A stretch of 63,785 nt of DNA, counting the filler, from Hausera hauseri (Eukaryota), in the NCBI GenBank assembly GCA_046269625.1. It is 11 parts of 11 records of this genome, joined end to end, with 100 filler letters (N's around TTAATTAATTAA, not from the genome) between each part and the next. Parts side by side here need not be neighbours in the genome. Positions count along the whole stretch, not along the records: positions 1 to 11,909 come from JBJURY010059995.1; 10 more parts are not named here. One strand, written 5' to 3'. Below the pieces are notes generated by a model. It worked only from the letters and a program-made list of their open reading frames with translations, had not been told where the DNA came from and made no database searches. This document shows positions 1 to 38,821 of this stretch, one piece after another (position 1 is the first letter of the stretch; the number at the start of each line of letters is the position of its first letter). The position numbers and the translations under genes are program-made.

Positions 1-2
1 AA

Positions 3-998
3 ATCCTGAGCTAATAAACAATCATTTTGAATCATATCCTTATAAATTTGATATTGATTATTTACCATATAATGGAATAAATAATCTATTTTTCCGTTAT
101 AATAACTCATCGGTCTTACTTCTGTGGGATGTACGGTCTTCTGAGCGTTTTCTATTTCTATTTCTGAAACATAAATATTTTCCATATTAGTAGCAAAAAT
201 ATCTTCAACTCCACATCTAGTCACTTTTTCCTTTCGGATGAATCTTATAGAGTCTTCAATTTTCGTGGATATCATAATTGTTGGTGTGTCTATTTGTTCT
301 AATTTATCTTCCTCGTTTTCATTTCCAATGTTTCGTCGTGCAAACGGTGTACTGAGTCGTATTCCTCTGGTCACGTTAAATTTTACCTTTTTTAAAAAGG
401 CCAAATTACATTCAACCACCGGTGCAATCCAAGTAATAATTGAATCAGTAGTTCTACAGTACTCAGTGCCGTACTTACAATTTGTTTTGATCATCAATTG
501 TTTTGATTCCACATCGAATGAAATATCCTTTTCAATAATGGTTAATGTATACAGTGCTTGTACAACAACTCTTGCAACACCATCCACAGTGTTTCCATAA
601 CAATCTCCGTTAGCTGTAATAGACCCTTCCTCATTGATTGTATGATAATTTATAGCGTTTACGGCTGCTGCTATTTCGATTTTGTTATTTATTTTTAATT
701 TTCCTCTTTTTGCCGCATCTCTACATTGATCCATTGTTAATTCATGCGGTTCATTTGGGGTGGCCATTAAGATATTAGTTGAATGTCGATGTATTTTTCC
801 ACAGTGCCATTTCTTTATTTGCCTAGTTAGCTTACATTCTAGCGCTTTTACTCGTATGAATCTATTTTCTTGGTATATCCTGTAATTTTTAGTACCTTCG
901 AATATAAGTTTATCAGGCTCTGCATCTGGACATTTTTCTAGATCAACAAGGGAGTATGAAGCTCCAACCGCTGGATAATCGCAGTCATATGCTCGAAA
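3..998 (-). CDS. Chuvirus-type (class III fusion) glycoprotein ectodomain, N-terminal part
   Basis: FRAYDC..SYSLVDLEKC..LECKLTRQIKKWHCG..DQC..GSITANGDC..VVVQA..C..YC..W..C..RCG..YYNGKIDY..IYKDMIQNDC. Cys spacing and motifs match the Jingchuvirales G pattern as I know it. Preceded by the hydrophobic signal WLIILIIILCRGTHG (999-1043). Confidence 0.85.
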
Positions 999-3900
999 AC
1001 CATGAGTTCCTCGACACAGAATTATAATAAGTATAATTAACCATGTTAGATCATTAGTCCCTTGTCTAGGTAATGTACTACTAAGTAGCCTTTGTGCTTT
1101 AGTAAACAATTCAGAAAATTCATGTTCTCCATGACTATCTATTCTATATTCCTGTTCTGATATTTTACTTTCAGTCTTTTGAGGCTTATCAAAATTCAAC
1201 AAATCATTCCATCCTCCAATTCGATCTATATCTGGAGATATATGTGTTTTCAAAATTTCTATGACTACATCAAAACTACTCTCTCTTTCTTCAGTTGTAT
1301 CCGCCGAATTTTTAATTCTCATTGCTAAATATACTAAAATAGTGATAACTCTATCTTTTGTTAAACCTCCTGTCTTAATCCACTTTTGTATTATTTCACT
1401 ATCGTCTATAAGATCTATCCGTTCTGGTAATTGTTCATTTTTCACCGCAGTTTCTAATCGAACCAACGTTCGCTTTAAGTGATTTTCAATATCAAGAGTG
1501 AATGGCTCATCAATTAATAGGTCATTTTCTACTGGAAATAGGGAATTATAAATTCTCCATAAAATGGGTTTGATTTGCCTTGTTTCAAGATCCATTATTC
1601 GAATTTCACTTTTTCTTAGTGCTTTGGTTAAAGTATCAACTTTAACTTGCTCCCAAAGATTTTTCCTTGGACGACCTTGCGGTCTCTTATCAGTTTGTGT
1701 TGTTTCTTGTCTTGCTTGAAGCATATTTAATATATCTTTTACATTAGCTTCATTAATTAGATTTGATTGTTCTACTTCTTGTGAAATATCACCAATAACT
1801 TGGCTTGTTTGTTCATTCGGTCCTTCTGTCCGAACTGCCAATCCAGGAACTGATTGATCGATTTCCATTCTTTCTTGAGGAGCTGGTGTATGCATTTCAT
1901 CTTCAATATCCAGCCGTCGGATAGCTTCGTTTGATCCCAACACATTCTGTATACGCTGTTCTAGTTCTCTTTGCTTTAAGTTTTCGCTGTCTGTCCAATT
2001 TTCTAAGTGTACTGTAACAATTTCAGTTGGATCCATCCCATCCATAATTCCTAATTCTATCCATGGCCTTTCATAATTTAGGACAGTGCGACCCATAAAT
2101 GTCACTTGTTTTATTTGAATGTTCTCGTCGTCATATTGTAATCTTATCACTTCGATAGTTCCAATCATTGGTTCATCAACGTTTATAATAACTTGAAATT
2201 CACTAGTTTTATTTCTATATTTACCATATATATTTAGTTGAACTATTTCATTTTCCTCTAATCTTCTATCACTCATTCTTTTTTGATTATATCGTTGCAA
2301 TATCTCTTTTGCCATACTTGCTTCCAGTATGTGATCTGCGGCTTGTTTTACTAGAAACTTACGTATTCGAAGAAATCTTTCTCTATCTTCAATTAACCAA
2401 TTCATAATTCTATACATTTTATTCATAACAAGTGTGCAAACGTCCTCTTTATCACTGTTATTTAATAGCATAGTTAAATAATATTCAAACTGATCTTCTT
2501 CCGTTCGTATCTCTTCGATCTCCACCCCTGGGCCAAGCATCATAATTCGAGACATCTCTGTGGTATCTTTCCCTTTTTGGCTCTCGTCGCCGTAATTTTT
2601 ATCAAAAATATTTTTACCTTGCTTACTACCACCGACTATGGATTTGCCTTGACCTGTAAACCACGTATACATTCCTTGTATTCGTTTTGTTTTATCCATC
2701 TTTACTTTAGTACAATATTTTGATTTTTTTGACCGATTTTCGTATTTTGTTTTATCGGTGTAGACTTCTAAACCATTTTTATTTTCTTGACCTTTAGTCA
2801 ATACTGGTGATACATCTCTACTTATCATATGGTACGTATTTTCCTGTCGTACCTGATTAGTTGACTTCTCTTGAGTTGCCCTCAATCTTAGTTGTTTTTC
2901 TATTATTGAACCATCTACTCCATATCTCACTAACATCATCTTTTTATCAATTTTCTCATATTCTTCGTTTTCTTCATCTTTCTCCGATTGAATCCAGTTA
3001 TCCAAAAATACATGATATACCGAGCTATCCAATCGCTCTATTATTTCTCGCAATTTTATAAGTAAAACCATCGATATTTTCATTTCAAATCTTATATTTA
3101 ATTTACTAATACCCAGCATTCTTTTTACGCATTCAATCTCTACTTCACAAACATTATCAAATCCTCTTAAATATCGAATTCGTTTAACTTTTAATACACT
3201 AAGTTCTTTATTCATGGACACTTTGTTAAATTCATTTATCGTCTTAATTATTTCGTCAAAGCAATGACTACACTTATATCTTTGGAAAGAATTAATAGAT
3301 CGTCTGACCTTCAATCGTCTTTCTATTTCATTCTCCTCTTCTACTATATTTTCATTTAAGCCAAAACTTCCTGTCTTTAAAGTCTGTTTTAAATACGTTT
3401 CTAACTTCACTTTATTTATCTCAGTACTAGCTATATTTATGTGTGTCTCCGCATTCTCTTTAACTAATTTTGTTTCACTTACAATTTCACGATTCTGTAA
3501 GTCTACCTTTTTTGATAATTTTTCTGGGTCCTTCAATTTCTCTAGTCGTTTTCTTAAATCATGTCCCGATTCGTCTTTGGATTTTTCAGAATCTACTTTA
3601 TCTTCTTCTTTAATCATTAAACATTGCTTCTTAAATACATTTACTTCATTACAACCCATATTATCAGAATTTTCTAAGAAATTAACATCTATTTCCTTTA
3701 CATTATCATTCAATTTTATCCTTAATCCATCTGGTATACTCGCCTCTCCATTTATATCTGTCTCATTTATCTCATTAATTTCTGAACATCCATCATTAAT
3801 TTTTAGCCGGTTCAAGATTTGCAATTCATTACTCACTTCTATATTTTCGACTTTAATCTTCTCAATCTTTCGAGGTAGAGTTAGAATTTTAAGAGTCTCA

Positions 3901-5975
3901 ACACTCGACTCTTCCGTCAGCTCATTATCGCCCAACCTTTTACTGAATTCACTACAATTCCTAGAATCCGGTTCTACATCCGAATTAGATTGTATATCCA
4001 TTGAAAAATTGTCAATATTACATTCACTATTCAATATTACCGTGTTTAAGTCGAGTTCAGAACTCACATTCTCCTCACTTTCATTACTGGAATCAGTGGA
4101 CGGTGCCTTTAAATAATTTTCACTCAATTCATTTGCCATATAAATACATTCATGTTCCAACAGACTTTCAACATCCTTTATTTTTGACACTTCGGTCAGA
4201 TTTATTTCGACTGCATTTAATTCAGTACTTAGTTTATTTTCGTCTTGACAATACCAATTACTACAACTAGCTCCTTGTGGGTAACCGCCATATTTACTTA
4301 CAAACTTCTTTTCTTCAATTTCCCAAAATTTGAATACTTCATTATCAACATCATCATCCTGACTGATTTCTTCTGGGCAACCATATTCATGCATCATTTG
4401 TTTAATAGTTTTTATCTGTTCTGGATACTCTATTTTCCTACAATAACTATCACTCTTAGATTTTTCTTTTGATTTCTTATTCTTTACTCCAAACATACTA
4501 GCTTGATTTCCATGCAATACTTTTAACCTATCCAATTGAGTTCGCATCTCATCCCTTTCGGCTCTCAATTGTTTCAGTTCGAATTCTACATTTACACTAT
4601 TCGAATTTTGATAGTTTTCAACATTACTATCATAATTTCCTCTTGGATTCCATGTATTTTCATAACATTCCTGATTCTCATTGTCCCCCGATTCATTCAA
4701 TTGTGTCTGGAAATTTTGATTATTTTGCATAAGAGTTAGTTTATTATGGATTACCAACAATGGACATTTCTTCCAAACATGTCCTACTTGATTACAATGA
4801 TAACAAAATCTATTTTCATTCATCATACCTACCTGAGTTGGGCAGTTTCGGGCCACATGTCCCCACTGTGCACAAATATTGCACTGCTCAGGTTGTTGAA
4901 TATAAGGTGGCATTAATACCGGCGTTCTTTTTATTTCTGGGCAAGACTTGGCAATATGTCCAAATTTTTTACATTGGTTACACTGAATTGATCCTCTGTA
5001 ATTGACTTTGTCCCTTTCTAACGCCATTGCTTGTTGCTGTGTAGTTTGTGATCGGAGAGGATATCGTTTTTGTTGTTCTGGAGGGTTAATCCATTGTTTT
5101 CTATTCAAATTTGCTCCAGCGGCCATATCTTTAATAGGAGTACCCATTCTTTGTGGTTCTAGATTTGCCCTTATAGGTGGTTTTACAATATTTGGGTCGA
5201 TATTATGAAACAAATTTTGATTAATGTTCTGGTTAGTGCCTACATTCCAACGAGGCGGACCCCAACGCGGTATCGAAGGAACTTGCCAACCGGCCTGTCC
5301 ATAAGACCACGATGGAGTTCGCCACGCTTGGTTAGTCGGCCTAAAATTTCGATTTGGGTTTTGAAGTCTAGGGTTACTATTTAGGGTTTGGTTGTTATTA
5401 AATGAATTTTGATTGATTTGATTTAATTTATTCTCTACGTTTTCAAAATTTATTGCTTTTCTTATTAATTCACTCAAGGTGGAAACATCACTTTCGATCA
5501 ATTGTCTTTGAAGTTTGGGACTATTAAGTCCGGTGATAAAACAATCTATTAGAATTGGCTCTATAGCAAATATTTTAGGAGGACTCTTATCATCTTTATT
5601 TATTTCCTCTTTCTCTAAAGCTTCTTTGTATCGTTTACCTAGCAATTGTAAAGCAAATGCAAACTTATTAACTGATTCCCCAGGCAATTGCACTCTAGAA
5701 CGCAAACTTCTGAGTTTAGCACTAGACGATGGGTCAGGGTCTAGATTCCGTCGTAGTGTATCTACAAATTTATTCCAACTTAATTTCTCCTTCTCCTCAA
5801 TTTGTAAATAAGCCTGCAATGCTATCCCTTCAAGATGGGCAACTAAACGTTTGATTTTCTCTTTTTCATTCCACTCCAACCCATCTGCTTGTGCTGCGTA
5901 TACTAACATAAAATCGTCAAATTCAGACGGTTCACCTGAATACCTGCCTAAATTTAAATTAGCGAACGTAGACAT
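3..5975 (-). CDS. Gag-accessory-envelope polyprotein of a Gypsy-type LTR element (>=1991 aa, 3' end off-window; not in ORF track)
   Basis: Manual codon-by-codon check found no stop from ATG 5975 (frame open from 6113) to base 3. Capsid-like N-terminus (LGRYSGEPSEFDDF...W...KIKRLVAHLEGIA; MHR-like QLPGESVNKF) and three CX2CX4HX4C knuckles at 4764-4982. No D[ST]G protease, YxDD or DDE motifs seen. Confidence 0.9.
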   Translation of the reverse strand, partial: MSTFANLNLGRYSGEPSEFDDFMLVYAAQADGLEWNEKEKIKRLVAHLEGIALQAYLQIEEKEKLSWNKFVDTLRRNLDPDPSSSAKLRSLRSRVQLPGESVNKFAFALQLLGKRYKEALEKEEINKDDKSPPKIFAIEPILIDCFITGLNSPKLQRQLIESDVSTLSELIRKAINFENVENKLNQINQNSFNNNQTLNSNPRLQNPNRNFRPTNQAWRTPSWSYGQAGWQVPSIPRWGPPRWNVGTNQNINQNLFHNIDPNIVKPPIRANLEPQRMGTPIKDMAAGANLNRKQWINPPEQQKRYPLRSQTTQQQAMALERDKVNYRGSIQCNQCKKFGHIAKSCPEIKRTPVLMPPYIQQPEQCNICAQWGHVARNCPTQVGMMNENRFCYHCNQVGHVWKKCPLLVIHNKLTLMQNNQNFQTQLNESGDNENQECYENTWNPRGNYDSNVENYQNSNSVNVEFELKQLRAERDEMRTQLDRLKVLHGNQASMFGVKNKKSKEKSKSDSYCRKIEYPEQIKTIKQMMHEYGCPEEISQDDDVDNEVFKFWEIEEKKFVSKYGGYPQGASCSNWYCQDENKLSTELNAVEINLTEVSKIKDVESLLEHECIYMANELSENYLKAPSTDSSNESEENVSSELDLNTVILNSECNIDNFSMDIQSNSDVEPDSRNCSEFSKRLGDNELTEESSVETLKILTLPRKIEKIKVENIEVSNELQILNRLKINDGCSEINEINETDINGEASIPDGLRIKLNDNVKEIDVNFLENSDNMGCNEVNVFKKQCLMIKEEDKVDSEKSKDESGHDLRKRLEKLKDPEKLSKKVDLQNREIVSETKLVKENAETHINIASTEINKVKLETYLKQTLKTGSFGLNENIVEEENEIERRLKVRRSINSFQRYKCSHCFDEIIKTINEFNKVSMNKELSVLKVKRIRYLRGFDNVCEVEIECVKRMLGISKLNIRFEMKISMVLLIKLREIIERLDSSVYHVFLDNWIQSEKDEENEEYEKIDKKMMLVRYGVDGSIIEKQLRLRATQEKSTNQVRQENTYHMISRDVSPVLTKGQENKNGLEVYTDKTKYENRSKKSKYCTKVKMDKTKRIQGMYTWFTGQGKSIVGGSKQGKNIFDKNYGDESQKGKDTTEMSRIMMLGPGVEIEEIRTEEDQFEYYLTMLLNNSDKEDVCTLVMNKMYRIMNWLIEDRERFLRIRKFLVKQAADHILEASMAKEILQRYNQKRMSDRRLEENEIVQLNIYGKYRNKTSEFQVIINVDEPMIGTIEVIRLQYDDENIQIKQVTFMGRTVLNYERPWIELGIMDGMDPTEIVTVHLENWTDSENLKQRELEQRIQNVLGSNEAIRRLDIEDEMHTPAPQERMEIDQSVPGLAVRTEGPNEQTSQVIGDISQEVEQSNLINEANVKDILNMLQARQETTQTDKRPQGRPRKNLWEQVKVDTLTKALRKSEIRIMDLETRQIKPILWRIYNSLFPVENDLLIDEPFTLDIENHLKRTLVRLETAVKNEQLPERIDLIDDSEIIQKWIKTGGLTKDRVITILVYLAMRIKNSADTTEERESSFDVVIEILKTHISPDIDRIGGWNDLLNFDKPQKTESKISEQEYRIDSHGEHEFSELFTKAQRLLSSTLPRQGTNDLTWLIILIIILCRGTHGFRAYDCDYPAVGASYSLVDLEKCPDAEPDKLIFEGTKNYRIYQENRFIRVKALECKLTRQIKKWHCGKIHRHSTNILMATPNEPHELTMDQCRDAAKRGKLKINNKIEIAAAVNAINYHTINEEGSITANGDCYGNTVDGVARVVVQALYTLTIIEKDISFDVESKQLMIKTNCKYGTEYCRTTDSIITWIAPVVECNLAFLKKVKFNVTRGIRLSTPFARRNIGNENEEDKLEQIDTPTIMISTKIEDSIRFIRKEKVTRCGVEDIFATNMENIYVSEIEIENAQKTVHPTEVRPMSYYNGKIDYLFHYMVNNQYQIYKDMIQNDCLLAQD
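1197..1590 (-). other. Bcl-2-like domain within the polyprotein
   Basis: BH1-like KWIKTGGLTKDRVITILVYL and BH2-like ILKTHISPDIDRIGGWNDLL in correct order and spacing; upstream BH3-like IENHLKRTLVRLE. Confidence 0.65.
1662..1688 (-). other. AT-hook motif within the polyprotein
   Basis: KRPQGRPRK versus AT-hook consensus K/RPRGRPRK. Confidence 0.6.
2001..2250 (-). other. Ubiquitin/SUMO-like domain within the polyprotein
   Basis: VQLNIYGK..FQVIINVDEPM..VTFMGRTVLNYERPWIELGIMDG..IVTVHL resembles the beta-grasp pattern (FxGxxL..ELGxxDG..IxV); no C-terminal GG. Confidence 0.5.
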
Positions 5976-6197
5976 TTTCTGTTCTTCGAGTTGGTTATAA
6001 TTTTCCTCTAATTCAATAGATTCTTGCTCGAAAACTTTTCTCCTAAAATTTTCTTTAACTAAAACCTTTTCCTGGTATCCTTCCAGACTCACCCTTGAAA
6101 ATTTCTTATAGTCTTATGATCAGAAACTATTTGTACGAATGCTACTCAACGAAATTTTCTGTGTCTAATTTTATAGTCTAGTTTTAATGAGATCAGG

Positions 6198-6215
6198 GTC
6201 CTGGCGTGGTCGCCA
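6198..6215 (-). promoter_or_regulatory. Primer-binding site complementary to a tRNA-Arg 3' end
   Basis: Minus strand TGGCGACCACGCCAGGAC, a few nt after ...AAACA and 220 nt before the gag ATG. TGGCGACC is the tRNA-Arg PBS start known from mdg1/412-type Gypsy elements. Confidence 0.85.
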
Positions 6216-6220
6216 AAATT

Positions 6221-6829
6221 TGTTTGTTTATACGTTATTTTATCACTACCCCGCTCCCAGATTAAATTGTTATGATTTACTTGATTTAACTCTAATTAAT
6301 TTTCCCCCTTTTTTCTTTTTTTAACTACTATGATTTTCGTATTCTTTATCACGTAATTTCCACTTTAACACAAACCTTCTTCAAGGCTTTTATCCCCTTG
6401 CTTTTTCTATCGTTATTTATTAATATCCAAACGAACTGGCTAAAGTGCTCCGAACCCGATTGAGATCAGACAAACTAAAATGACTACGATAGTGTAGGCC
6501 CACAAAAAAACAACTAGGTATGATTTTATCAAAATCAACAAGGAGTTTATCAATCACGAGTAGAAAATTGTGGCAATTTAACAAATCGTCCACAATTTTC
6601 TAACTACACACAGACGATTTTTTTCAAGCACAATATTTAGGGCCTTAGTTTACTTTCTTTCTTTCTAAGAAAGGAAATATGACAATTAAAGTATAATAAT
6701 AAAAAAATTAAGAAAAATTACCACCCACTTGAAAGTAATTTGTTTATTTCTTCTCTTTTTCTATTCCCCAAAAGTCGAAACTCTACAAGCTCGATTGACC
6801 ATCAACGTCGGTTAAGATTTTAAATAACA
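6221..6829 (-). repeat. Putative LTR (~609 bp)
   Basis: Minus strand starts TGTTATTT right after a purine tract and ends AAACA just before the PBS (TGTT...AACA inverted termini). No second copy is in the window, so the 5' boundary is inferred. Confidence 0.6.
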
Positions 6830-6842
6830 TTCTCCCGTTTTC
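6830..6842 (-). promoter_or_regulatory. Putative polypurine tract
   Basis: Minus strand GAAAACGGGAGAA directly before TG. Confidence 0.55.
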
Positions 6843-7173
6843 ATAAATAAGATAACTCGATGATTCTTCCTTTATTTTTTGTCAGTCTTTCTATTTCTAC
6901 TTTGTATATATATATTACTAATTAAAAAAAATGTTAACAATGTGTCTCATGCAATTGTCTTGAAAATTGCTATACAGTGAAATAATCAACCATCTCCACA
7001 GTTCCCATAACAGGAACTGTGCCTCTGAGGCAATCAGATTTACAATAAAAGAAATTTAATGAGAATATTTAATTATTGCCTCAGAGGTAATCAAATTTAC
7101 AATACAATCAGATCTACAACACAAGAGGGGGGACAAAAAAATATCGTCTTCCACTGGCGATAAAAGGTACAGT

Positions 7174-9057
7174 TCATGGTGAATCTAATACGATTTGATC
7201 AGTCCATGATGAAAAGTCGTCAAATAATGAGCGAGTGGGTGTTGGTGTAGGAATGGGTTTCTGAGGGCTTCCGATGGGTAACAAAGTATCTGTATCTGAA
7301 ATATCACCTGATTTTGATTGGGTTGGTATTGTGGAAGTAGGAAAAGTGGTTACATCTGTGCATAATAAGGGGTTAGTGATATTTGTAGTTTGAGATATCT
7401 GAAAGGTTTTTTTTGCTTGGTAATGGAAGGAATTGAGTGGTAAAGATTGCATAGCGGGGCTATCAGCATCTGTCGGTACGCGAAGAGGTGGTAAGAAAAG
7501 ATCTGAGGTAGGGTTTTCGAGGAAAGAAAAGTGTTCCCAATTACATTGTGGGATTGAGGATAGGGGTTTATACGGTAGTGTATTTGCCAAGTCAGATAGG
7601 GCTTGTGGACGCCATGGGGGTAAAAGCCAGTTAAATCGTCGTCTTTCTTTGTAGATGTCATGGACAATAAATATCATGTATTCAGCGTCCATTTTACTTG
7701 GTATAAAGTAATCAGTCGATTTGTATATGGCAGGAAAAGGTTTAAAGCCATTTTGACTATAGTTGAGGTCTATATACCCTAGTAATAGCTTGGCTGAAAG
7801 ATGCCAAAGGTTCAGGAAGTAGAGTGGGTCGAAAGTAACCAATATTCTGCCATATATGGCACGTTGAACATGGGCTCTACAGAGGGCGAAATCTGGTGCA
7901 TGATCAACATCATCTAAAGATATACTATGACAATGTTTATCCACATTATCAATTTTTTCTCTAGGGCAAACAAATGTCTTGTATTTTATGTTAAGTGGTC
8001 CATCTGGATCGGTACTAAGATCACCCAAGTAAATATGAATTACTACAGGAAGACTGCCTGAAAATGCCACGGCGTAGCCGGCGAAAATAATTTCCTGAAT
8101 AGGGTACGGATAGGGTGTTCGAACATAAGAATGTGGGATAGGATTCGGGGGTTGGGGTAGCCAGTCAAGTTCATTTAGGGGCACTTGTCCATTAATTGAT
8201 GTATCCAAATAACGGCGCCAAGGTGGAATATCCACATATTCTAGTTCTATATACGTAACCGAATTCTCTCTCATTAGGATGGTAAAGGAATGTGAACTCC
8301 AGACATCTGCTGTCAAAAGAATAGATTTGAACGAAGATAAGTATACTTTAAATATGGGTAGGGGTGGTCTGTGGATCTCTAATACAACAGATCCTTTAAT
8401 AACAGATAAAAGCATATCTTTTGGTTGTAGTGGAAAATTCTGAATGGAAAATTGTTGGTCTAAGATTTGTCGCATGGGGAATGGCCCATAATTGTGTGAC
8501 CAATAAGAAATCAATATACAGCGATCTTGCAGGCTATTACTTTTGAATTTATTAGGGATTGTGAACACAGAAGGATATTTAAGTGTAATGTTGCGAAATA
8601 ATGTATCAAAACGTACCGAGCGATATGTGGATCTAGAACGTAAAATTTCAAAAAGGAAAGGAATAGATGATCCCTTTGGCAAAAAAATGGGAATGCGTGG
8701 CATTTGTTGCAAGTTGGCAAATTGGATACTTTGCCCGATATTACGGATTGGTGGGGCATACATTAAAAAATAGGAGGTATTAGAATAAGACGTAGAAGCG
8801 AGGGGTAAGAGAAGTAAGGGAGGGTGAATTGTATCCATAGTTTGTTCAACGGATGCTTCACCACTTTCGATGCGGATAGTAGACTGCACATAGGTTGATC
8901 TCTGGAGCGGTATTGATGTCATACGGAGATATCTAACTTCACTGATGCAATAAGTCACTGAGATCACCTTGATGCTTGAGTGATCTAAAAAAGTAAAGTG
9001 GGTGTTAGACCACTGTGCCCAAGCCTGAAAACAATAGGCCGTGGCCGACTTTAATTG
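7174..9057 (-). CDS. Unknown Pro-rich 627-codon domain, probably expressed by stop-codon readthrough
   Basis: Track ORF 7174-8967 is in frame with ORF 9058-9393 and open up to its TGA; context TGA CAA TTA. Confidence 0.7.
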   Translation of the reverse strand, partial: QLKSATAYCFQAWAQWSNTHFTFLDHSSIKVISVTYCISEVRYLRMTSIPLQRSTYVQSTIRIESGEASVEQTMDTIHPPLLLLPLASTSYSNTSYFLMYAPPIRNIGQSIQFANLQQMPRIPIFLPKGSSIPFLFEILRSRSTYRSVRFDTLFRNITLKYPSVFTIPNKFKSNSLQDRCILISYWSHNYGPFPMRQILDQQFSIQNFPLQPKDMLLSVIKGSVVLEIHRPPLPIFKVYLSSFKSILLTADVWSSHSFTILMRENSVTYIELEYVDIPPWRRYLDTSINGQVPLNELDWLPQPPNPIPHSYVRTPYPYPIQEIIFAGYAVAFSGSLPVVIHIYLGDLSTDPDGPLNIKYKTFVCPREKIDNVDKHCHSISLDDVDHAPDFALCRAHVQRAIYGRILVTFDPLYFLNLWHLSAKLLLGYIDLNYSQNGFKPFPAIYKSTDYFIPSKMDAEYMIFIVHDIYKERRRFNWLLPPWRPQALSDLANTLPYKPLSSIPQCNWEHFSFLENPTSDLFLPPLRVPTDADSPAMQSLPLNSFHYQAKKTFQISQTTNITNPLLCTDVTTFPTSTIPTQSKSGDISDTDTLLPIGSPQKPIPTPTPTRSLFDDFSSWTDQIVLDSP

Positions 9058-9350
9058 TCATAAGATAGTTGTATAAACACCATCGGTTTGCCTATTCACA
9101 ATCTCGTCGGGCACAAAATAATTCAAATTAAAGTTAATATCATATTGTGGTATATTTTCATATTCGTTTAGGTACTCTGCATAAAATGTCTTATTGGATC
9201 TCTTAAGATACACGGCAAGTGAACAGCATATTATGATTGCTATACCTGAAATAATAATTACAACCACCCATGTATAGAAGAGAGGGAATGAATTTTGTTT
9301 AGATTTCACAAATGCACTAGTTGTTGAGGCCGGTATACGTGAAAAAAAAA
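9058..9350 (-). CDS. Transmembrane anchor and cytoplasmic tail of the integrase-fused glycoprotein (frameshifted at a T9 run)
   Basis: WVVVIIISGIAIIICCSLAVYL followed by KRSNK and Tyr motifs YENI/YTTI; overlaps the end of the upstream ORF at the homopolymer 9342-9350. Confidence 0.65.
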
Positions 9351-11746
9351 TAAAAGGTAAATTTTTGTTTCCAATTTGAAAAATTTGTTTCAAATAATAT
9401 GGGTTTTTCCAACGGTTTGGGAATTACAAGACGTGTTGTATTGCGTTCATGCGCTGCTGACTCAGACAAGGATTGGTTTGGTGTAAAGTTAACTGTTGTA
9501 GTTAAAGGGTCCATTTTTGTAGGGACAATTCGTGAGTCCAACGTAATGACTTTTGGTCTTATGTGTGGAGGTGAATTAAATGAGAATAAATGTTTTAAGT
9601 TCAGCGTCGTGTTAATTATAGGTTGACGTGATGAGTTTACCAAGATTGCGAACTGAATCCGACATACAGAGGGTCGAAAATGGATATCTTCTTTCTTTAT
9701 TACTACAAGCCGAGGTGAAGACGGTCCCACGGACACCAGCCAATGTTTTCCTATGTATATAGCTTCCAATACTGGAGGGTTCCACCGTGTTCGTAAAACA
9801 TCAATATAAGAATAGGGGATTGCTTTCCACAAAAATGATCCCAATGTAAATAAAGGTTGAACAGGGGGAATCAACCAATCGTGTATGAAATATATGTTTG
9901 TCTCGGATATTGGAATGGTAATTCTGACCCATGTCGGTTTATTATAATATATTGGAAAACGTGGTAAATCAAGGGATAATTTTGGAACAATAGTCCGTCT
10001 AGTAAAATTTAGTCTAATTCCTTCAATCTGTACTAAAACTCCGGATTGTCCTTCAGTCCATAAGTACTGATAAACCAAGAATGGTTCTCTGAAGATCCGA
10101 AACGAAGGTGTTTGTAAAGGTGGCGTTTCCCACCTGTCGACTATTGTCGTTGAACCTTGGTCAAAGAAGGCGAAAGTTTGTTGCACTGTGGGCTTGTCCA
10201 CAGGATAAAAACATGCTCCGCCAGGTGACTCAATTGTACATAGGCCAAGAAATTCTACTGACCGGTTATCCCAAATATGAAATATTAAAACTTTAACAGT
10301 GTTAGTCGTCTGAGGAATATTTGTGTGTAAATAAGTTATCTGGTTTTGATGTCTCCAACCCATATATATTGCTGGTCGACATTCGTAATTTCCTAAGCAG
10401 TGAAGTATGGTAAAAAGGAAAGTTGCGTATAGAATACGACTTTCAAATAATGTAGAGCAAATTGGTTGAGTAGGATCTGTTACTTTTGTTTTATCTTTCT
10501 TTTCATCTTCCGGTTGTTTTATTTCTGGATCTTTACTTTTCGATATGGGCGGAGAAGTCAATTTGCACCATTCTGCTGCTAGACAAACAATTTCATTACG
10601 TTTGCCTACTTTCTTTTTAATAAAAATATTGTTATCTGTAACTCGTTCAACCTGATAAGGTCCTTTCCATGGACGAGTTAGTTTGGGTGATAGACCTTTC
10701 TTTGTTACATGGTCGTAAACCATTATCCAATCATCTACTTGAATTTTATGGGGTCTGGCATGTTTATCATATTGCTTTTTATATTGTTTTTGGTAGTCCA
10801 ATGTTAGTGACTGAGCTAAAGCCCAAGCCTTCGTTAATCTTTCCTTTAGATAGTTTACATAATCTGGTTCACTTTTTGCCAATGCTTCCTTTGGTATAAA
10901 TTCTAAATCTATGGGTAGTAATGGTTCTCTTCCATACATCAAATAGAATGGAGATTCATGCGTTGCTGTGTGTGGCGCAGATCTCAAAGCGAACATACAG
11001 GCTGGGATAAATAGATCCCAATCATCTTGTCGATCGTTTGTTACTGTTGCCAGCATTGACAATAGTGTCCCATTTAATTTTTCTACCATTCCATCTGTTT
11101 GTGGGTGATATGCAGCGGTTTTAAGTTTGTATATAGTAAATAGTCTGCACACTTCTTCAAACATGTGATTTATGAATTCTCTTCCTTGATCTGTTAATGT
11201 TTTTCGTGGAGCACCATACCGAAAAACTATTTCTTCAACAAACAAAGCTGCAACAGTAAATGCCGTCTTATCAGGCATTGGAAAGGCTTCCGGAAATCGT
11301 GTCAAATAATCAATGAATACTAGTATATATTGGTTGCCACTTTGTGTTTTATGTAATGGACCGACAATATCCATTGCAGTAAATTCCATTGGTCTTGCTG
11401 GTGGTGTTATAGGGTGTAATTGCGGTTTACTGCGTAGTCCTCTAGCTCGTCTAGTTGCACAGATTTGACAATCTTTACACCATTGTTCCACATCCTGCTG
11501 AACAGTTCTCCAATAATATTTTGTTTTGATTCTTCCTAACGTTTTTTTGAAAGCCGGATGACACGCCAACATTCCATCATGTTCTTGGTGTAGTATGTCT
11601 TTTCGTTTTTCCAATGGTATTACAATTAGTTGTTTATTACGGTGCCAATATCTTACTAGATCATTAATAATAAGATAGTGTGATCCTTGATTTAATAAAT
11701 GGTGCATCAAGGCTTTCTCTTCCGTATTAATTTTCTTTGTTCTCAA
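9317..11746 (-). CDS. Gypsy/Ty3 integrase with ~370-aa glycoprotein-like C-terminal extension (pol 3' end; 5' part frameshifted and truncated by contig end)
   Basis: HHCC (H..HP..C..C), MDIVGP, DYLTRF, TDQGREF, YHPQTDGMVE, WKGPY; then hydrophobic ILYATFLFTILHCLG (10391-10435) and several N-X-S/T sequons. Confidence 0.9.
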   Translation of the reverse strand: MRTKKINTEEKALMHHLLNQGSHYLIINDLVRYWHRNKQLIVIPLEKRKDILHQEHDGMLACHPAFKKTLGRIKTKYYWRTVQQDVEQWCKDCQICATRRARGLRSKPQLHPITPPARPMEFTAMDIVGPLHKTQSGNQYILVFIDYLTRFPEAFPMPDKTAFTVAALFVEEIVFRYGAPRKTLTDQGREFINHMFEEVCRLFTIYKLKTAAYHPQTDGMVEKLNGTLLSMLATVTNDRQDDWDLFIPACMFALRSAPHTATHESPFYLMYGREPLLPIDLEFIPKEALAKSEPDYVNYLKERLTKAWALAQSLTLDYQKQYKKQYDKHARPHKIQVDDWIMVYDHVTKKGLSPKLTRPWKGPYQVERVTDNNIFIKKKVGKRNEIVCLAAEWCKLTSPPISKSKDPEIKQPEDEKKDKTKVTDPTQPICSTLFESRILYATFLFTILHCLGNYECRPAIYMGWRHQNQITYLHTNIPQTTNTVKVLIFHIWDNRSVEFLGLCTIESPGGACFYPVDKPTVQQTFAFFDQGSTTIVDRWETPPLQTPSFRIFREPFLVYQYLWTEGQSGVLVQIEGIRLNFTRRTIVPKLSLDLPRFPIYYNKPTWVRITIPISETNIYFIHDWLIPPVQPLFTLGSFLWKAIPYSYIDVLRTRWNPPVLEAIYIGKHWLVSVGPSSPRLVVIKKEDIHFRPSVCRIQFAILVNSSRQPIINTTLNLKHLFSFNSPPHIRPKVITLDSRIVPTKMDPLTTTVNFTPNQSLSESAAHERNTTRLVIPKPLEKPILFETNFSNWKQKFTFYFFFTYTGLNN

Positions 11747-11909
11747 ATTCTCTGATTATTTGTAATTCTGGATCCTTTTCCTGTAAACATATTAATTTCT
11801 AAATATCGGTCTCAGTCAATTGATTATCGTGTAAATCTTTATGAAATATTAACATTTGAGAAACATGAATTTGTTTACATTCAGTTTCGAGATTTTCTAA
11901 TTCTTGTTT

Positions 11910-12009: not shown

Positions 12010-13109
12010 TATCGAGAACAATGTCGTATTGGTTAATGTAAACATACGCCTCTGAGTATATTGGATCCGAAAATCCCGTTAACTGCATCATATCATGTAG
12101 AAGAATCGATTTTTTAACAAGATTAACTAAAACGATTTGAAAATCAGGCTTCGACAACAGAGGTTTTAAAAGCTGAAGTTTGTGTTGGATGTCATCAAAT
12201 CTAGTGGACTTGATAAAATACGTGGAAAGATTATTCAACTGAATTGGAGCTTTGTACAGATTCACAGAAGAATACTTTTCAATTAACGAGCTAAATACGT
12301 CGACGGATTCAAAACAAAATGCGTGTAAAATACAACACTTTATTAACACATCTCTGTCCAACATCGAGTTTTTTGAAAATACATCTATAACGTTTGTGTG
12401 TGACTTTGTGTCGAGAGAGTTTAATAAAATTTCTATACCGCGACTAACAAGAATTTCGAAAAACTGGTAAGAATCAATTTTCAACAGGCAATAATTGATG
12501 ATTTCGGAAATACTTTTAACAGGTTGTTCTGAATAGCGTCCATTGATGAGTAGATTTTTCACAACCTTTCTATTAACTGTCATGTCGGAAAATTGAATAA
12601 CTTCATGAGCAGCTTTAAGAAGATTATCTAATGGACCAATACAAATTAAAAGATATTGCCTGAATGATGCATCAGGTGACTTGTATAGCAAATTGTGAAG
12701 TATTGGAAAAGGAGGATTCAACATAGAAATTCGGGAAATCATTGATTCCAAATTTTCTTTATCCAATTTACAGTTGATAGAAGGAAGCAATATGTCTACA
12801 GCATCAAACAAGTGCCTCCGAGCAAGTTTGAAAACGGTAATTGCAGCAACATTTTGATCTTTGAAAGGTTTGAGTTTTGAAAGCATCAAAGAAAGTAAAT
12901 CTTTCGATGCGCCACTATGAGCCAATTCGACATAACAGTCATAATCATACAATTGATAATTTTTTTGATCAACACATTTCTCAAAAGCAATCTTTAATAT
13001 TCCTGAACACTTATTAACATCGAAGATTGAAGCATATGACATAGCGAGGAAAGCGTAATCCTGATAGCGCAACGCAATTTTATTCTGTTTCCTGATATCA
13101 GAGTATCGC
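12010..13109 (-). CDS. Unknown helical region, C-terminal part of the chimeric ORF (truncated at contig end)
   Basis: Open in frame with the ferlin part; no motif recognised. Confidence 0.5.
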
Positions 13110-14125
13110 TCAATTTCGTCTTGTGACCAAAAATGCTCTTTCTTTCGAATAACCATCATATTCTCGACAGGAAGATAGCTAAACAGAAAAACAAATCTCC
13201 AATTGAAATTTCCTTCTCCATCCAGGGATCTGTAATGAACATCCGTTTCTTGCTTTTCATCAATACCAGCCAACCATCCCTTAACATAAATATCCGACAT
13301 TTTCTCACCTAACAAATTTTCCTCTTCTAAAATAACGTCTTTCGTATTCCAAACAATAATACGTAATTCATATTGTCTAGCTTTCCGTTGAGTTATGTCA
13401 AATGGCGATCCAAGGTTTTCTATTGCACGTGGAAATATATCGATCCAACATAATAATTTTCCTTGTTCAATTCCTGGTTGTAAAGGGCTGTAAAGTGGCC
13501 TTGTTTCAACATGTTCCTTAGTTAATTGAAACAAGTTTAAAACGTAAAGAGCAAGTCGTTCTTTACTTGGACCGTAATGAGGATTGCTTTTATGCTTTTC
13601 AAACGAAGAAAGTTTAAACTGACGTTGACCAATGCATAACGTTTCGTCATCTTTGAACGTTGGTGGTGGAATGAAATTGTTTTCACAGAAGGTTGTTAAT
13701 ATTTCAAGAGGCTTAAAACAGTCCCTCCATTGATTTGGTCCGTTAATGCAATACGTTTGGGGGATACCACAAGTTGCGCGGAATTTCGTTAGTAAACGAT
13801 TTTCTAAGTCAATTGATGTCTCACCAATAACGTCATCAGTGCTCATTGAATCATAATCTTTAATTCTGATGTATAGATCTTTACTTATTGGAATTGTACA
13901 TTTGATTTCAAACATTCTGCCGAATTCGGGACACAAACAATTTGGTATATAATTGTATTTGTTACTTACGATTTTCTTACCAAGTTGAACTTCAACGTAT
14001 GGATCAGACAGTCTACTTGGGTCATTAGGTTGAAGTTCAACCGCTTTTACAACATATACACGTACAACACATTCAATTGGTTGTGTAGATGGTAAACCTC
14101 TTTCAAGATATTTTGGCGGCAACTT
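13110..14125 (-). CDS. Ferlin C2E and partial C2F region, middle of the chimeric ORF
   Basis: VRVYVVKAVELQPND..DPY, DDVIGETSIDLENR, EHVETRPLYSPLQPGIEQG, YELRIIVWNT, MSDIYVKGW, QETDVHYRSLDGEGNFNWRF. Confidence 0.92.
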
Positions 14126-14294
14126 ATATTCACATCCACTAAATCTAAACATTACATGCCGTTGAACATGTATTCTGTAACCAAACACTCTCTTAATCTT
14201 TGGCTGGAGCATTAGTAAAAGAAAAGAAATAAATTCATTGCGTATACATCCACAAATTTCAGTTAATTTTTGTCTCAAATTATTATGGAATTCA

Positions 14295-16369
14295 GGACTT
14301 AAATTTTTAATTCCAGCATTGATGATACTTGTATAATCACTGCCTTTGGGAAGAGCATATGCATAAAAATATTGATCGAAACCATTCGTTACGGTGATAC
14401 ATGGTGTACCAATGCTGAGTTTCAAAATTGAATCATGATAGATGAATGCAACATATTGACTTTTGATCAAGGCTAATCCATCATTAGAATTATTCACATA
14501 TAAGCCCTTTGTACCCCCTTGCAACTCTGCAGCCAGCTGTTGAACATAATCGTAGGGAGGCTGTTTCAAGAACTGGGTAACAGATGACTGATTCACTGTG
14601 CATGATTTATAAGTGGTTTGTTTTTGGAAATCTTCAAGTGTTGTTATGGCTGATTGCAACCGTAAATTAGTTCGAATTGCACCATAAACTGCAACGTATG
14701 ACAACAGAACAATAATATTAAATATCCACCAAAATACAGCAAGGATTCGTCCGGAAGGTCTGTCGGGTAAAGCAGTGGTTACACCTTGAACAAGTGACCC
14801 GACAAAAAATAAAATTGAGTCTTTAATTCCAAATGATGCTCTATTTGGACTCAGTAAATTGATTAGCGTCAAAACTACTGAGTAGACAATGGTACTTAAT
14901 ATTATTATTACCCACACGAGCCAGTTGAAAACAAGAATAAAATTGAACATTGTTTCATAATTGCTTTTGGTTACTTGTTTGTAGACTATTGCAAGTTTGT
15001 ATGCTTTGAACGTATCGGTCATATCGATATACGGAAGATATGACTTAAAGTACGTAATAGGTCCAACGACAATATCAGCTTGCCCATTTTGTGCTATTAA
15101 AAGTATACCATTTAACTGATTGTTGATTAGCATTCCAGGAAAAGTATTGTAATAAGTTATATTGTATGAAACATTTAAGTTATTCAATATTTGTTCGATC
15201 ATTTCAATACTGTAACCAGGTTTAGTACTGTTTGGAATGACGAACGGATTTTCCACGAGCGCAGCTATTCTGAATGGTACTGCTCTCATTATCTTTAAAA
15301 TATTAGCCGTCGTAGGTTGAAATAAAGGTAGAGTTGGTTGATTGACTGTTACATTACCATTAAGAGTTGCCTCTACATTGCCAACTTGTTGGAAGGAATT
15401 GTTAAAAATGTATACATTTACACCCCATGTTTTCCTGTAAATTGCACTGGTATTAAATGTTAAAATTCCGGTTGATAATGTAACATCTCCTGGTAATGGC
15501 GCATTACATGCATCATAGTCAAGCAGGCGTATCAAAGAATAAGCAATATCACTCAAAATCATATCCCTTTCCCCTACAAGTCTGAGGGAACCGTTGAAGT
15601 TTGATGCACATGTTTGACAGAAATCATATGCAGTAAAGTTATTTGAGAAAAACACGTTCAGTCCAATTTGTTGGTAATTTGTGGCAAATCCGCTGTAAAA
15701 GACGAGCCAACGATATTTCCAATTCAACACTCTCCTTTTATCACAGATCGAAATAAGCTCTACTGTTTCATTGAAATTTAAGTCCGTTGCGATATTTTTT
15801 ATAGATCCGGTTTGTAAAATTGTTGCAATTTGCTCGGCTGTTGAAGAATTGTAATATTGAATGATTTTTATGGCGCCGCTGAATGTACCAAAATAGGCCA
15901 ATGGATTGAATACTCTCCACGGTGTTAAGCTGTCAACGATCCCTGCGTCAATAACAATGATAATTGTTTTGTTTACGTCATTGGCCAACATGTTATTCAT
16001 AACTGATGTGACGTTTTCGACTTTGACGTCGTAAACAAATGGCACAAACTTACATAAATCAGCATAGTCGTCTGATGAAATTTCATTAATCAATGCTGTT
16101 AAAAAAATTTTATAGTCGAATAGAAGTTTACATAGTGGGACAATGGGGCAGTGAATAAAAGCAACAGAAGGGAAAAAACGGTGACTTAAACAAAAACTGC
16201 GGTATGCTTTAAAATCAACAGAGAGACTTACCAAATCATTCCAAAACGAGTCAAACAAAATCGCGAATATGTGTCCATTGTATAATGTCTCATTATTTAG
16301 CCAAAATTTCTGACACCATTTGTTGTTCTTTGCTTTAGTAGACTGGAATTCGACTGAATCTTGCGACAA
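14295..16369 (-). CDS. Divergent ionotropic glutamate receptor-like region (ATD-S1-M1-P-M3-S2, no M4), N-terminal part of a chimeric ORF
   Basis: ENPFV, GYSIEMI, ADIVVGPIT, M1 FNWLVWVIIILS, pore DSILFFVGSLVQG, SGRILAVFWW..SY, YAYALPKGS. Confidence 0.85.
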
Positions 16370-16518
16370 AATAATAAACGGGTTAAATATAATTAATTTA
16401 ACCTCGATTTGTTGGTGCNNNNNNNNNNNNNNNNNNNNNNNNNNNNNNNNNNNNNNNNNNNNTTAATTAATTAANNNNNNNNNNNNNNNNNNNNNNNNNN
16501 NNNNNNNNNNNNNNNNNN

Positions 16519-28000: not shown

Positions 28001-29828
28001 CCACCTCAAGACATGCTTAATTCTTTAAAGTCTTGCACAATTGTTGACGGCGTGACTTTAGACATTTCCAAACCAGGTTATTCCGTAATAATTCTCGCAC
28101 CATCATTGCAAAGGCGAGAATTTAATAGCGTACATTCGCTACACCACCCTGATGCTAAAGCCACTTTTTGTTTACTCCATCGACAAGTAATATGGCAGTC
28201 AATGCGTTCTTATGTGCAGGCGTGGGTTAAAGAGTGTGTGGATTGCCGAAAATTCAAAACAACTAAACATTTAAAGACACCATTGTTCCACTTCCCCTGC
28301 ACATTGCGTTTCGACATCATTGGCCCTTTTCCTCCAGACAGAGGTTATCAATTCATTCTCACCATGATGAATCGTTCCTCGCGATGGCCAGAAGCCATCC
28401 CTCTGCGCAGCACGAACACAGATACCATAGCTGACGTTTTCATTCGTACATGGATTAGCAGGTTTGGATCACCTCGTTTTATCGTCACGGAATAGGGTCC
28501 ACACTTTGAATCCAACCTGTTCAAATCCCTTGTTAACCGATTGGGGTTCCATTACATGCATACTACGCCTTACCATCCCCAATCGAATGGCCTTCTAGAA
28601 CGCTTCAACCGAACATTGAAAACGTCACTAGGAATTGTTGCATCGTCCAACACTAGTTGGACGAATCTTCTTCCGTTTGTTCTGCTTGGCTGGCTGAACA
28701 CTCCGTCTACTTCTACGGGATGCTCACCTACTGAAGCCTTATTCGGAGCTCCTGTACGATCATTGTTCGAACCAACTGCTTTACACGACACTCCTACAGA
28801 TGAAACGACACGGACGGCGCGAAATCCCTTCGTTACGGTCAGCAAAGATTCGCTCTGTAGGATACTTCACAAAGACAAAACATATTTACCCGAAGACTTG
28901 TATTCGACAAAATTCGTATGGCTAAAAAATCAAACACCGTGCAGTTTTCAGCCGCGGTATCTGGGGCCCTATAAACTGATATAGCTGCATTCATATCATG
29001 CTATTATCTCTAAAGACGGCAAAGAACTTACAGTACATATTACCAACTTAAAGTCCGCCTTCTTTGTCGACGACACTTTACCAATGGACACGTCAACCTC
29101 TTTCCTCACTCCTACACTTCCTACTCTTCCTTTATCTGTTGCTACATCAGTTTAACCTCCTCCTTCTGCTTCTAGTTCTACTTCATCATTCTCCACACCT
29201 TTTACTTTTATTTCTATCTCTTTTCCTTTTTCTACCACTCCCGCTGTGTCATTTTCTACTTCTACTCTTCCGCCTAACAGAATTCCAATTTCTACTTCAA
29301 TTTCCGTTTCTCGTCCTTCATCTTCTAACACTGTCTTGAATACCTTTAACCGTCCATTTTCAACAATGTCTCTTCTTCCTTCACCTTCTTCTTCTCTTCA
29401 TTTTGACTCGTCTTTGCACAACACAACATTCACTACAAAATCTGACAATTTTTTCCCTAACTTCAACCTCTGCAAGCAAACACATCCCATAAAGACAACA
29501 TATGCAGAGTCATATTTAGCAAGTATAGCAGGGAAAAATCAGTAGAATGCACCAAACGTCTTGCTTACACTAAGACCAATTGACACAGGCTCTTTTTGTT
29601 TAGCGATTTTTTCTTTCCGTCTATTTTGATTTTTATAGTTTTCACTTTGCCACGGAGGTGATGTGGTGCCCACGATGGCCGGTGCCCATTGGCCTATTTG
29701 GTCGGGCGCGGCAGGGCGTCCGTTGCCGCCTCGTCGGGCTCATAGTCGGGTCCGATCTTCCGCCTCTAAATCGACTGTCAAGAAAAACACGTACTATAAA
29801 TGATCGTACTCAACAATGTCCTTCGATG
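25100..29828 (+). mobile_element. Decayed CsRN1-like Gypsy LTR retrotransposon (gag-PR-RT-RH-IN, PPT, partial 3' LTR from 29662)
   Basis: CHCC-type gag fingers, FLIDTGA, RPCGD, DDILI, YSTFDREL, DIIGP, YHPQSNGLLER, RYLGPY; many stops and frameshifts. Confidence 0.9.
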
Positions 29829-35733: not shown

Positions 35734-37199
35734 NNNNNNNNNNNNNNNNNNNNNNNNNNNNNNNNNNNNNNNNNNNNTTAATTAATTAANNNNNNNNNNN
35801 NNNNNNNNNNNNNNNNNNNNNNNNNNNNNNNNNCAGCATACGGCAACTTCATAAATTTAAGACGCGTGGAATTTATTCCAACAGGTTGGACACGTCTAAT
35901 TTAAGAAAACTAGCGAGATATAAACATTAATTATATAACTACAAACGAAAAAAAAATGTTAAACACATACACAACAATTGGTATTAATGAATGTCGTATG
36001 GGAATATGTATTAGTGCCTTCATTTTTCTTGGCTTTGGATTTGTAAGTCGAAAAGCCACGATTTCTGGGAATTGAATCCACTCAACAAACGAGTGTTTCA
36101 GCCATTAGAAGTGATTAAAAGTGTATGTCCTAAACGCTCAGCAGAGATAACAAAAAAAGTCATTCCTGAATAGTTTACGGAGGTCACGATACTAATGACA
36201 TATTGAACATAAATAAGGAAGCAAATGGTTATCTATTAGTTATTGCGATAAATGTACAGTTCATAAGAAGTATAGCAAAATTGACAGTGAGAAAAGGAGA
36301 AAAACAGATAAAGAACAAAGAACAGAAGACCTACAGTTCAGTGGCGAGATACCAGTATTACATAATTTAAAACTACAGGGAACGCTATATACGCTGGAGT
36401 ATTTGCATCAAAGATACTAAATATTAAAATGGCACATGGAAAAACGGCAACTAGGTCCGGTAGACACAAATATAAATATATACCTACCTGACGATTTCCT
36501 TGTCTGTGAAAACTTGGAGATGTAGCGGTAATCTGCAGCTTTATCCAGCTTTTATAATTGGTTTGGCAAATCAATAAATGACGTAGGCACATACATTTCT
36601 GCCACGCTCATGATGATAACATCGTGCACGACGTGACGATAGTAGCGTATTTTTGGGGGAGGGCCATGGGGGAGGGAGTATTTTCTTATATGCGGTATAT
36701 ATCCCCCCCCAGCTGGGGGAGAGCGTCGAGGTAAGAGGGAGATTACTCTTTTTTAAGGGCCAGACAATTCTTGTATATTTTGTTTTTAATGAGGTAATTG
36801 ATTAGCTAATTAGGTGTTTTGTAAAATCTTATTTAAATAATAGTTATGTATAGGTGTAATAGTTGATGTCCGCTGAAGGTGGTGGGGTCGGCCAAAGAGG
36901 CTGGGGTAGGCTGCTGTGAGGTCGCCGGAGCATCCGTCGGATCGCCGGTAATTAATTAATTGCTGTCGGGGTAAGGGGCGTGACTAAGACCGAATCAGCG
37001 GGTTTTTCTTCATCATCGTTCTTTGTGATGACGTAATTTCTTTAATTACGTGCAGTAAGGGGTTGTGGTGGTGACGGGTCTTTGTATCGGTAGTGTGTTT
37101 GGTATCGTCAGGTGCCGTGAGGTGTGGGTCAAGGCTATTTTCTTTTAATGTCGCGGTTCTCAAAGGGGTTGGGGGTGGTGTAGGTCGGTTTCTTTGTGT

Positions 37200-38775: not shown

Positions 38776-38821
38776 TTTATGTTACAGTCGCCTTTACATT
38801 CCCAAATTTCCTGACACCCTA

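Follow-up and report, generated by a model that had tools for sequence, protein, structure and literature searches.

A TGA codon at 9060-9058 on the minus strand of a 63,785-nucleotide window of Hausera hauseri DNA (GenBank assembly GCA_046269625.1) is, in our judgement, probably a programmed readthrough site of a Ty3/gypsy retrotransposon family. The codon stands in a full readthrough-type motif, a long open frame follows it in phase, an integrase and a predicted membrane protein precede it, and the element exists as a many-copy family. The window joins its contigs through ten artificial spacers (N44-pad-N44, from 11910 to 58226), the contigs on either side of a spacer are not linked, and the locus analysed here is the first contig (1-11909).

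In intact copies, the pol frame would lead, by way of an internal signal peptide, to a membrane protein that is glycosylated and crosses the membrane once, and most ribosomes would terminate after its 49-residue tail. A minority would insert an amino acid at the UGA, aided by the adjoining CAA-UUA and by a stem 8-11 nt downstream, and would append a soluble domain; because the extension lacks a membrane helix, it would end on the cytoplasmic side. The appended domain is probably an exonuclease of the DEDDh type that has lost its activity and would bind RNA or partners in place of cutting, and the outcome would be a small, fixed share of membrane-tethered pseudonuclease. Readthrough is a known mechanism, here proposed in an unexpected place. 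The features of the locus are listed in minus-strand order.

10451-11755, minus strand: 3' portion of pol, comprising a Ty3/gypsy integrase with an HHCC zinc finger, a D-D-35-E core and a GPY motif, and a linker
10394-10450, minus strand: predicted internal signal-peptide-like hydrophobic stretch in the integrase frame (hydropathy 1.37, top window of the 812-residue product)
9351-10393, minus strand: predicted ectodomain of about 350 residues, rich in sequons and without known family
9342-9350, minus strand: T9 run, the reading-frame break of the present copy (translation in three frames)
9208-9270, minus strand: predicted transmembrane helix (hydropathy 3.09)
9061-9207, minus strand: tail of 49 residues that contains two tyrosine motifs and is predicted to be cytoplasmic (from the sequence)
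9049-9063, minus strand: readthrough-type stop context xxA-UGA-CAA-UUA-xxG (motif as in PMC3159437)
9004-9049, minus strand: predicted stem-loop, in whose core 9046-9041 pairs with 9013-9008 and which could extend to 9049/9004
9025-9031, minus strand: TTTTCAG resembling a splice acceptor, whose cut would fall between two codons of the 627-codon frame (next base 9024)
7174-9057, minus strand: 627-codon extension without membrane helix (open frame, hydropathy)
7498-8295, minus strand: candidate DEDDh/DnaQ-exonuclease-like part, probably catalytically dead (a lead from Atlas and NCBIfam)
6678-6692, minus strand: 15 nt perfectly reverse-complementary to 9048-9062, where the stop and its context lie; in the non-coding region downstream, 2.4 kb from the stop

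A readthrough-type stop context in front of a long open frame

The minus strand reads ATC TTA TGA CAA TTA AAG at the site, and 627 codons stand open behind the TGA, up to the TGA at 7176-7174. The first-pass annotation of this DNA had reported the stop, the CAA TTA and the 627 in-frame codons, and the minus-strand reading bears all three out. Stop codons followed by CARYYA number 12 in the whole window; the other 11 have at most 54 open codons behind them, and among the 68 stops that close at least 100 open codons, the TGA at 9060-9058 is the single case. The probability of CARYYA given a stop is 0.003, and that of the full xxA-stop-CAAUUA-xxG context is 3.5e-5 per stop. This full context is present at 2 of the 6,813 stop triplets of the window, the second being the distal complement of the site on the opposite strand. 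The context lies far beyond random expectation. A 20-letter pattern of the site had no match in the metagenome and, within the window, found only itself.

The context xxA-stop-CAA-UUA-xxG is invariant in 105 tobamovirus sequences (Firth et al., PMC3159437), and our site agrees with every invariant position except the stop itself, which is UGA. CARYYA is also functional after UGA (PMC3542737), and readthrough of UGA-CARYYA reached about 15% in a mammalian reporter (PMC4132726). With respect to the viral classes, the site has the CAR-YYA, the A at -1 and the G at +9 of type I, with UGA in place of the usual UAG; it departs from the UGA-CUA/CGG of type II in that the next codon is CAA.

The first AUG of the 627-codon frame is codon 46 and the first in a strong context is codon 74; for 45 codons to stand open ahead of the first AUG has a chance of 0.03-0.16. 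The strong context at codon 74 would suit a separate third open reading frame (ORF3), whose translation would begin at an internal AUG (codon 46 or codon 74), either on a subgenomic RNA or through reinitiation, with the stop context a coincidence, and separate DEDDy ORF3s do occur in the long terminal repeat (LTR) elements of bdelloids (PMC5408684). Such a route would, however, make accidents of the stop context, the match in frame and the 45-73 open codons that lack an AUG (chance 0.003-0.16), and we consider it very unlikely.

That the UGA is read as sense, through selenocysteine or a variant genetic code, appears extremely improbable. The identity of the stop is as expected under this reading, and there are hairpins downstream of the open reading frame (ORF), with weak microRNA-family matches only. 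Against it, an Rfam scan of 6000-9500 with E values up to 1 returned no selenocysteine insertion sequence (SECIS) family, five long ORFs conform to the standard code, together containing 76 TGG and no in-frame TGA, and the extension itself closes with TGA. We rejected both selenocysteine and a variant code on these grounds.

Architecture of the element

Three ORFs occupy the minus strand of the contig, with 812 codons (11755-9317), 627 codons (9057-7174) and 2,037 codons (6113-3, running off the contig end); the other end, at 11909, lies 150 nt upstream of the 812-codon ORF. In Pfam, the 812-codon ORF matches Integrase_H2C2 (E 3.8e-16) and rve (E 2.8e-10), with integrase residues D129, D189 and E225 (spacing 35) and the GPY at 365. 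The HHCC finger, the D-D-35-E core and the GPY/F motif of the integrase assign the element to Ty3/gypsy. The host is likely an animal, since other parts of the window hold pieces of an ionotropic receptor, a ferlin and a spectrin.

Eight N-glycosylation sequons follow the signal-like stretch, compared with one in the preceding 435 residues. The predicted ectodomain has no match in Pfam, NCBIfam, PHROGs or Atlas, and comparisons with longer proteins and viral contigs were also blank. Against 1.8 billion representatives it gave a single weak match of 50 residues, to a repetitive protein of 4,544 residues, which we judged uninformative. By Pfam and Atlas, the ectodomain upstream of the stop is not recognizable as an errantivirus env, of either the F type or the gB type. 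A Pfam match to Orthoreo_P10 (E 0.053) was rejected as evidence of a fusogen, being below the cut-off and spanning the membrane helix only. No direct repeat that would constitute an LTR pair was found within contig 1-11909. Purine tracts lie at 6762 and 6322, and a motif resembling a primer-binding site at 6215.

A predicted stem-loop and a possible splice acceptor downstream of the stop

Of the two stems proposed in the first pass, the outer one, GGCCAC/GUGGUC (9046-9041 with 9013-9008), pairs strongly in a 61-nt fold, with pair probabilities of 0.93-0.97, but longer windows put two different hairpins, near-equal in energy, in its place. The inner stem, GGCCU/AGGCU, forms in the longer folds, and in the short fold an alternative register competes with it. 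The z-scores for folding are modest and vary with the window (-2.56 at 100 nt, -2.15 at 48 nt, -1.53 at 61 nt and -0.91 at 150 nt). Among 227 windows of 60 nt, 9055-8996 ranks second in stability, partly through its GC content. If extended to 9049/9004, the stem would begin 8 nt after the stop, a distance typical of stimulatory structures (PMC13517186, PMC3159437, PMC3542737). At position 9047 most other copies have a letter that pairs with 9006, where the present copy has a mismatch (a one-sided difference, judged by eye), and a change at 9032 falls, also by eye, in the loop of the inner stem. Overall, the modelling makes a downstream stem plausible.

The same region holds the TTTTCAG at 9031-9025. 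Used as a 3' splice site, it would allow the extension to be made from a spliced RNA of its own, the partner being either an exon farther upstream or, in a flatworm host, a spliced leader. A leader would supply its terminal AUG, so that translation of the frame would begin at codon 12 and yield 617 residues. Under either form of splicing, the conserved patch would be branch point and acceptor. The acceptor has 10 pyrimidines of 12, lacks an upstream AG and is in phase 0; a strict TTTTCAG-R in phase inside 45 codons has a chance of 0.002. In flatworms, spliced leaders have AUG as their last three bases, and the acceptors fit UUNYAG (PMC12582326, PMC9851317). Splicing is also independent of upstream translation, so it would be workable in the present broken copy. 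Loose acceptors are, on the other hand, common, with seven equally pyrimidine-rich in 5.8 kb and a chance of 0.10 for UUNYAG in phase inside 45 codons, and this one sits within the predicted stem-loop. Nor does splicing account for the stop context (3.5e-5) or for the extension being exactly in frame with the tail upstream. We regard it as an unlikely source of the extension, and one that could coexist with readthrough.

Variation among other copies

Two sequencing runs carry the stretch, one of which (X1) may be the source sample and the other (X2) a relative or carry-over. On 7170-9800 we aligned 873 contigs from X1 and 34 from X2, most of them less than 95% alike; the variants described here are the best 40 of 875 rows, chosen by support. 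None of the 40 lies at 9048-9063, though the flanking rows are deep, at 9047 (1,800 of 1,954 depth, 39 contigs) and at 9064 (954 of 1,078, 25 contigs). A majority change at 9048-9063 would outrank rows with a depth of about 100, and the stop is therefore unlikely to be private to the present copy; a majority sense codon at this position among other copies is unlikely. No relative was found in the other collections searched (metagenome and viral contigs).

These data bear on whether the TGA arose by plain nonsense mutation, in a decayed lineage whose polyprotein was formerly continuous. The present copy does have other breaks, and Burro-like elements join many domains in a single ORF (PMC6431247). 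Yet the two runs show no majority stop change among the best 40 of 875 rows, and a random nonsense change would not fall into a full readthrough context, which leaves this explanation a slim chance.

Within the extension, 12 of the 21 changes among the 40 rows are silent, where fractions of 0.34 (transitions, p 0.023) or 0.22 (all changes, p 6e-4) are expected. The ectodomain part has 7 silent changes of 14, and both changes in codons 1-45 of the extension are non-silent. Among 12 of the 17 indel rows, eight lie in the extension, each in a single contig, six of them as close compensating pairs.

The extension as a candidate pseudonuclease

The best Atlas clusters for the extension are DEDDh_C/RNase_T proteins (0.85), which we treat as a lead only. 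Against NCBIfam, a 94-residue core matches four families, all four of them DEDDh/DnaQ, with weak E values of 0.057-0.26, and by eye the core aligns with E. coli DnaQ. Five positions (D4, E6, D95, H154 and D159) are invariant in six known DEDDh domains, and the extension keeps two of the five, the D4 and D159 columns, in an alignment whose register is uncertain at the first and last catalytic motifs. We think it probable that the extension has an exonuclease-like fold and, if so, that it is probably a dead enzyme.

Homologs of the extension were not found among proteins of near length, longer proteins, PDB sequences, phages, PHROGs, metagenome contigs or E. coli. Single-sequence AlphaFold models (pLDDT, the predicted local distance difference test, 30.5 and 31.7) are unusable, and a Foldseek search with one such low-confidence model, which returned nothing at E ≤0.001, was set aside. 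Among the matches listed, the two halves of the extension gave no evident sign of an internal duplication.

Points against readthrough and the state of the present copy

Several observations weigh against readthrough at this stop. The in-phase acceptor-like site lies 33 nt downstream of it, the stem z-score is at its weakest (-0.91) in the 150-nt window, and support for the stem among copies amounts to one one-sided difference. Minority changes in the motif may sit among the remaining 835 of 875 variant rows. Of 30 depth bins, the one that covers the stop ranks highest (1,226), but that at 9634-9721 comes close (1,139), and depth is unsuited to ranking; together with the loss of match in some contigs at 9016 (four) or 9066 (three), the deep bin is suggestive only as a signal of the site. 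The putative nuclease is likewise exposed: the Pfam search of the extension was blank, a profile of 14 DEDDh sequences scored -0.4 bits on it, with 10 of 500 shuffles as high, and hhalign of the extension against DEDDh gave a probability of 0.2. Tca2 offers a precedent for the failure of an in-frame UGA junction in a reporter assay (PMC2194720).

The remaining points concern the copy in hand. Its integrase ORF breaks frame at the T9 run (9350-9342) and ends at TAG 9319-9317, and a neighbouring frame carries the membrane helix and the 49-residue tail to the TGA at 9060-9058. The frame closed by this TGA comprises 121 open codons without an AUG and is separate from the long integrase ORF, and ribosomes arriving from pol would therefore halt at 9319-9317. 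Three-frame translation reveals further frame or stop breaks near 11730-11800, and because of these and the break at the T run we consider the copy decayed. It is probably dead, and unlikely to use the readthrough site from unspliced RNA. One-base length differences at 9339-9342 occur in seven X1 contigs (99 of 353 depth) and three X2 contigs (14.8 of 19.8), so the break is not common to all copies; with the length difference in only about 28% of X1 depth, it may nevertheless be common to many X1 copies.

The T9 run at 9342-9350, which separates the ectodomain from the membrane helix, thus varies in length among copies. Decay is the most likely reason, and a slippage switch between secreted and anchored forms is possible.

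The first-pass annotation had proposed that 7174-9057 is made as a C-terminal extension through readthrough. For the family, this stands as the best explanation, given the full type I context, the distance of the stem, the absence of a visible majority stop change and the silent bias; it fares less well for the present copy, which is broken upstream and in which the in-phase acceptor offers a rival route.

A distal complement of the stop region

The expected number of matches to a 15-mer in 5.8 kb is 3e-5, which sets the scale for the exact complement at 6678-6692. Perfect inverted repeats of at least 15 bp occur once in 11 other segments of the window, or about 0.11 per 5.8 kb, and by hand we put the chance of such a repeat covering the stop site at about 0.001. 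The computed energy of the 15-nt duplex is -16.4 kcal/mol. Distal pairing controls readthrough in tombusvirids and luteovirids, through downstream structure rather than the stop (PMC3542737). Gating of the stop by long-range pairing with the distal complement is a speculative idea, and the complement could alternatively be templated scrap or a splice silencer. A hybrid signal might also be envisaged, in which the hexamer after the UGA, the local stem and the 15-nt antisense together hang a dead DEDDh nuclease on the glycoprotein tail and RNA pairing switches the amount of a membrane-tethered RNA-binding factor; we find this elaboration doubtful.

Directly after the extension, at 7021-7088 on the minus strand, lies a hairpin of two similar palindromic units, which scores 26.7 bits against an Rfam microRNA family with a cut-off of 71.8.

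Comparison with known readthrough systems and retrotransposons

Readthrough at CARYYA is known chiefly from plant viruses, and the bypass of stops in LTR elements has been described at gag/pol or pol/env joints. The tobamovirus replicase (A-UAG-CAA-UUA) and the coat extensions of benyviruses and pomoviruses share the A at -1, the CAA-UUA and the G at +9 with our site, and benyviruses have, after a 9-nt spacer, a compact stem-loop such as is predicted here; as proposed for our site, viral readthrough supplies some of the molecules of a structural protein with an extra domain (PMC3159437, PMC3542737). Unlike these type I viruses, the H. hauseri site has UGA instead of UAG, a likely animal host, an LTR retrotransposon as its carrier and a predicted membrane glycoprotein in place of a capsid or replicase. 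Type II alphaviruses and furoviruses resemble it in the UGA and in a stem about 8 nt downstream, which at our site is a predicted one (PMC3159437). They differ in having CUA or CGG as the next codon, where CAA is found here, and in an extended structure, the stem here being local. For tombusvirids and luteovirids, the likeness lies in a distal 3' complement to the readthrough region (PMC3542737), with the difference that their element pairs with the downstream structure, whereas the present complement covers the stop codon and the hexamer.

Among retrotransposons, SIRE1 (Sirevirus, Ty1/copia) reportedly carries a readthrough-type stop motif. In this LTR element a single stop, at the pol/env joint, separates the last ORF from the preceding one, with which it is in frame (PMC2194720), and the first-pass annotation had likened the present element to it for expressing an env-like ORF. 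That likeness turns out to be inverted, because the predicted env-like membrane protein precedes the stop; the element here is Ty3/gypsy rather than copia, and the part downstream of the stop lacks a membrane helix and is a soluble, putatively exonuclease-like domain. The bdelloid rotifer elements Juno and Vesta also combine an LTR element with an extra ORF of the 3'-5' exonuclease family after pol (PMC5408684). Their ORF3 is DEDDy with intact catalytic residues, in contrast to a DEDDh-like, probably dead domain behind a membrane protein and a putatively leaky stop, and PMC5408684 contains neither the term readthrough nor the term stop codon. Planarian Burro/GYPSM1 (PMC6431247) and the GAG-ENV-POL errantiviruses of flatworms (PMC13524379) are alike in having a multi-domain polyprotein with accessory domains; the passages searched mention neither readthrough nor an exonuclease, both terms occurring 0 times in PMC13524379. 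PMC3441728 and PMC13517186 served as background only. A literature search found no report of such an arrangement, with most subscription journals outside its coverage.

Other features of the window

Downstream on the same contig, the 2,037-codon ORF at 3-6113 (minus strand) encodes a gag with CCHC knuckles, a long spacer, a signal-like stretch and an in-frame Monjiviricetes-type fusion glycoprotein (Pfam Monjiviricetes_fusion, E 3.2e-23). It shares the gag-env layout of Burro-like elements and may represent the beginning of a further, tandemly arranged copy of this family. Remnants of three more gypsy-type integrases, distant at 23-27% identity, lie at 28088-28861 (plus strand), 61187-61825 (plus strand) and 53621-54022 (minus strand).

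At 12014-16417 (minus strand), 1,468 stop-free codons contain part of an ionotropic glutamate receptor, a ferlin C2 domain, dsrm domains and a coatomer beta piece; this region is an intronless mosaic of host genes. A spectrin-repeat ORF of 438 codons occupies 42280-43593 (minus strand), and 37107-38776 is a diverged tandem-repeat array with a unit of about 106 bp. A search for tRNA genes found none.

Implications

If the proposal is correct, readthrough after the tail of a membrane protein, in a gypsy element of a likely animal host, would be a new use of this mechanism, as a dosage switch for a membrane-placed accessory pseudonuclease. The element would then also provide a concrete test case for the role of exonuclease-like extra ORFs in retrotransposons.

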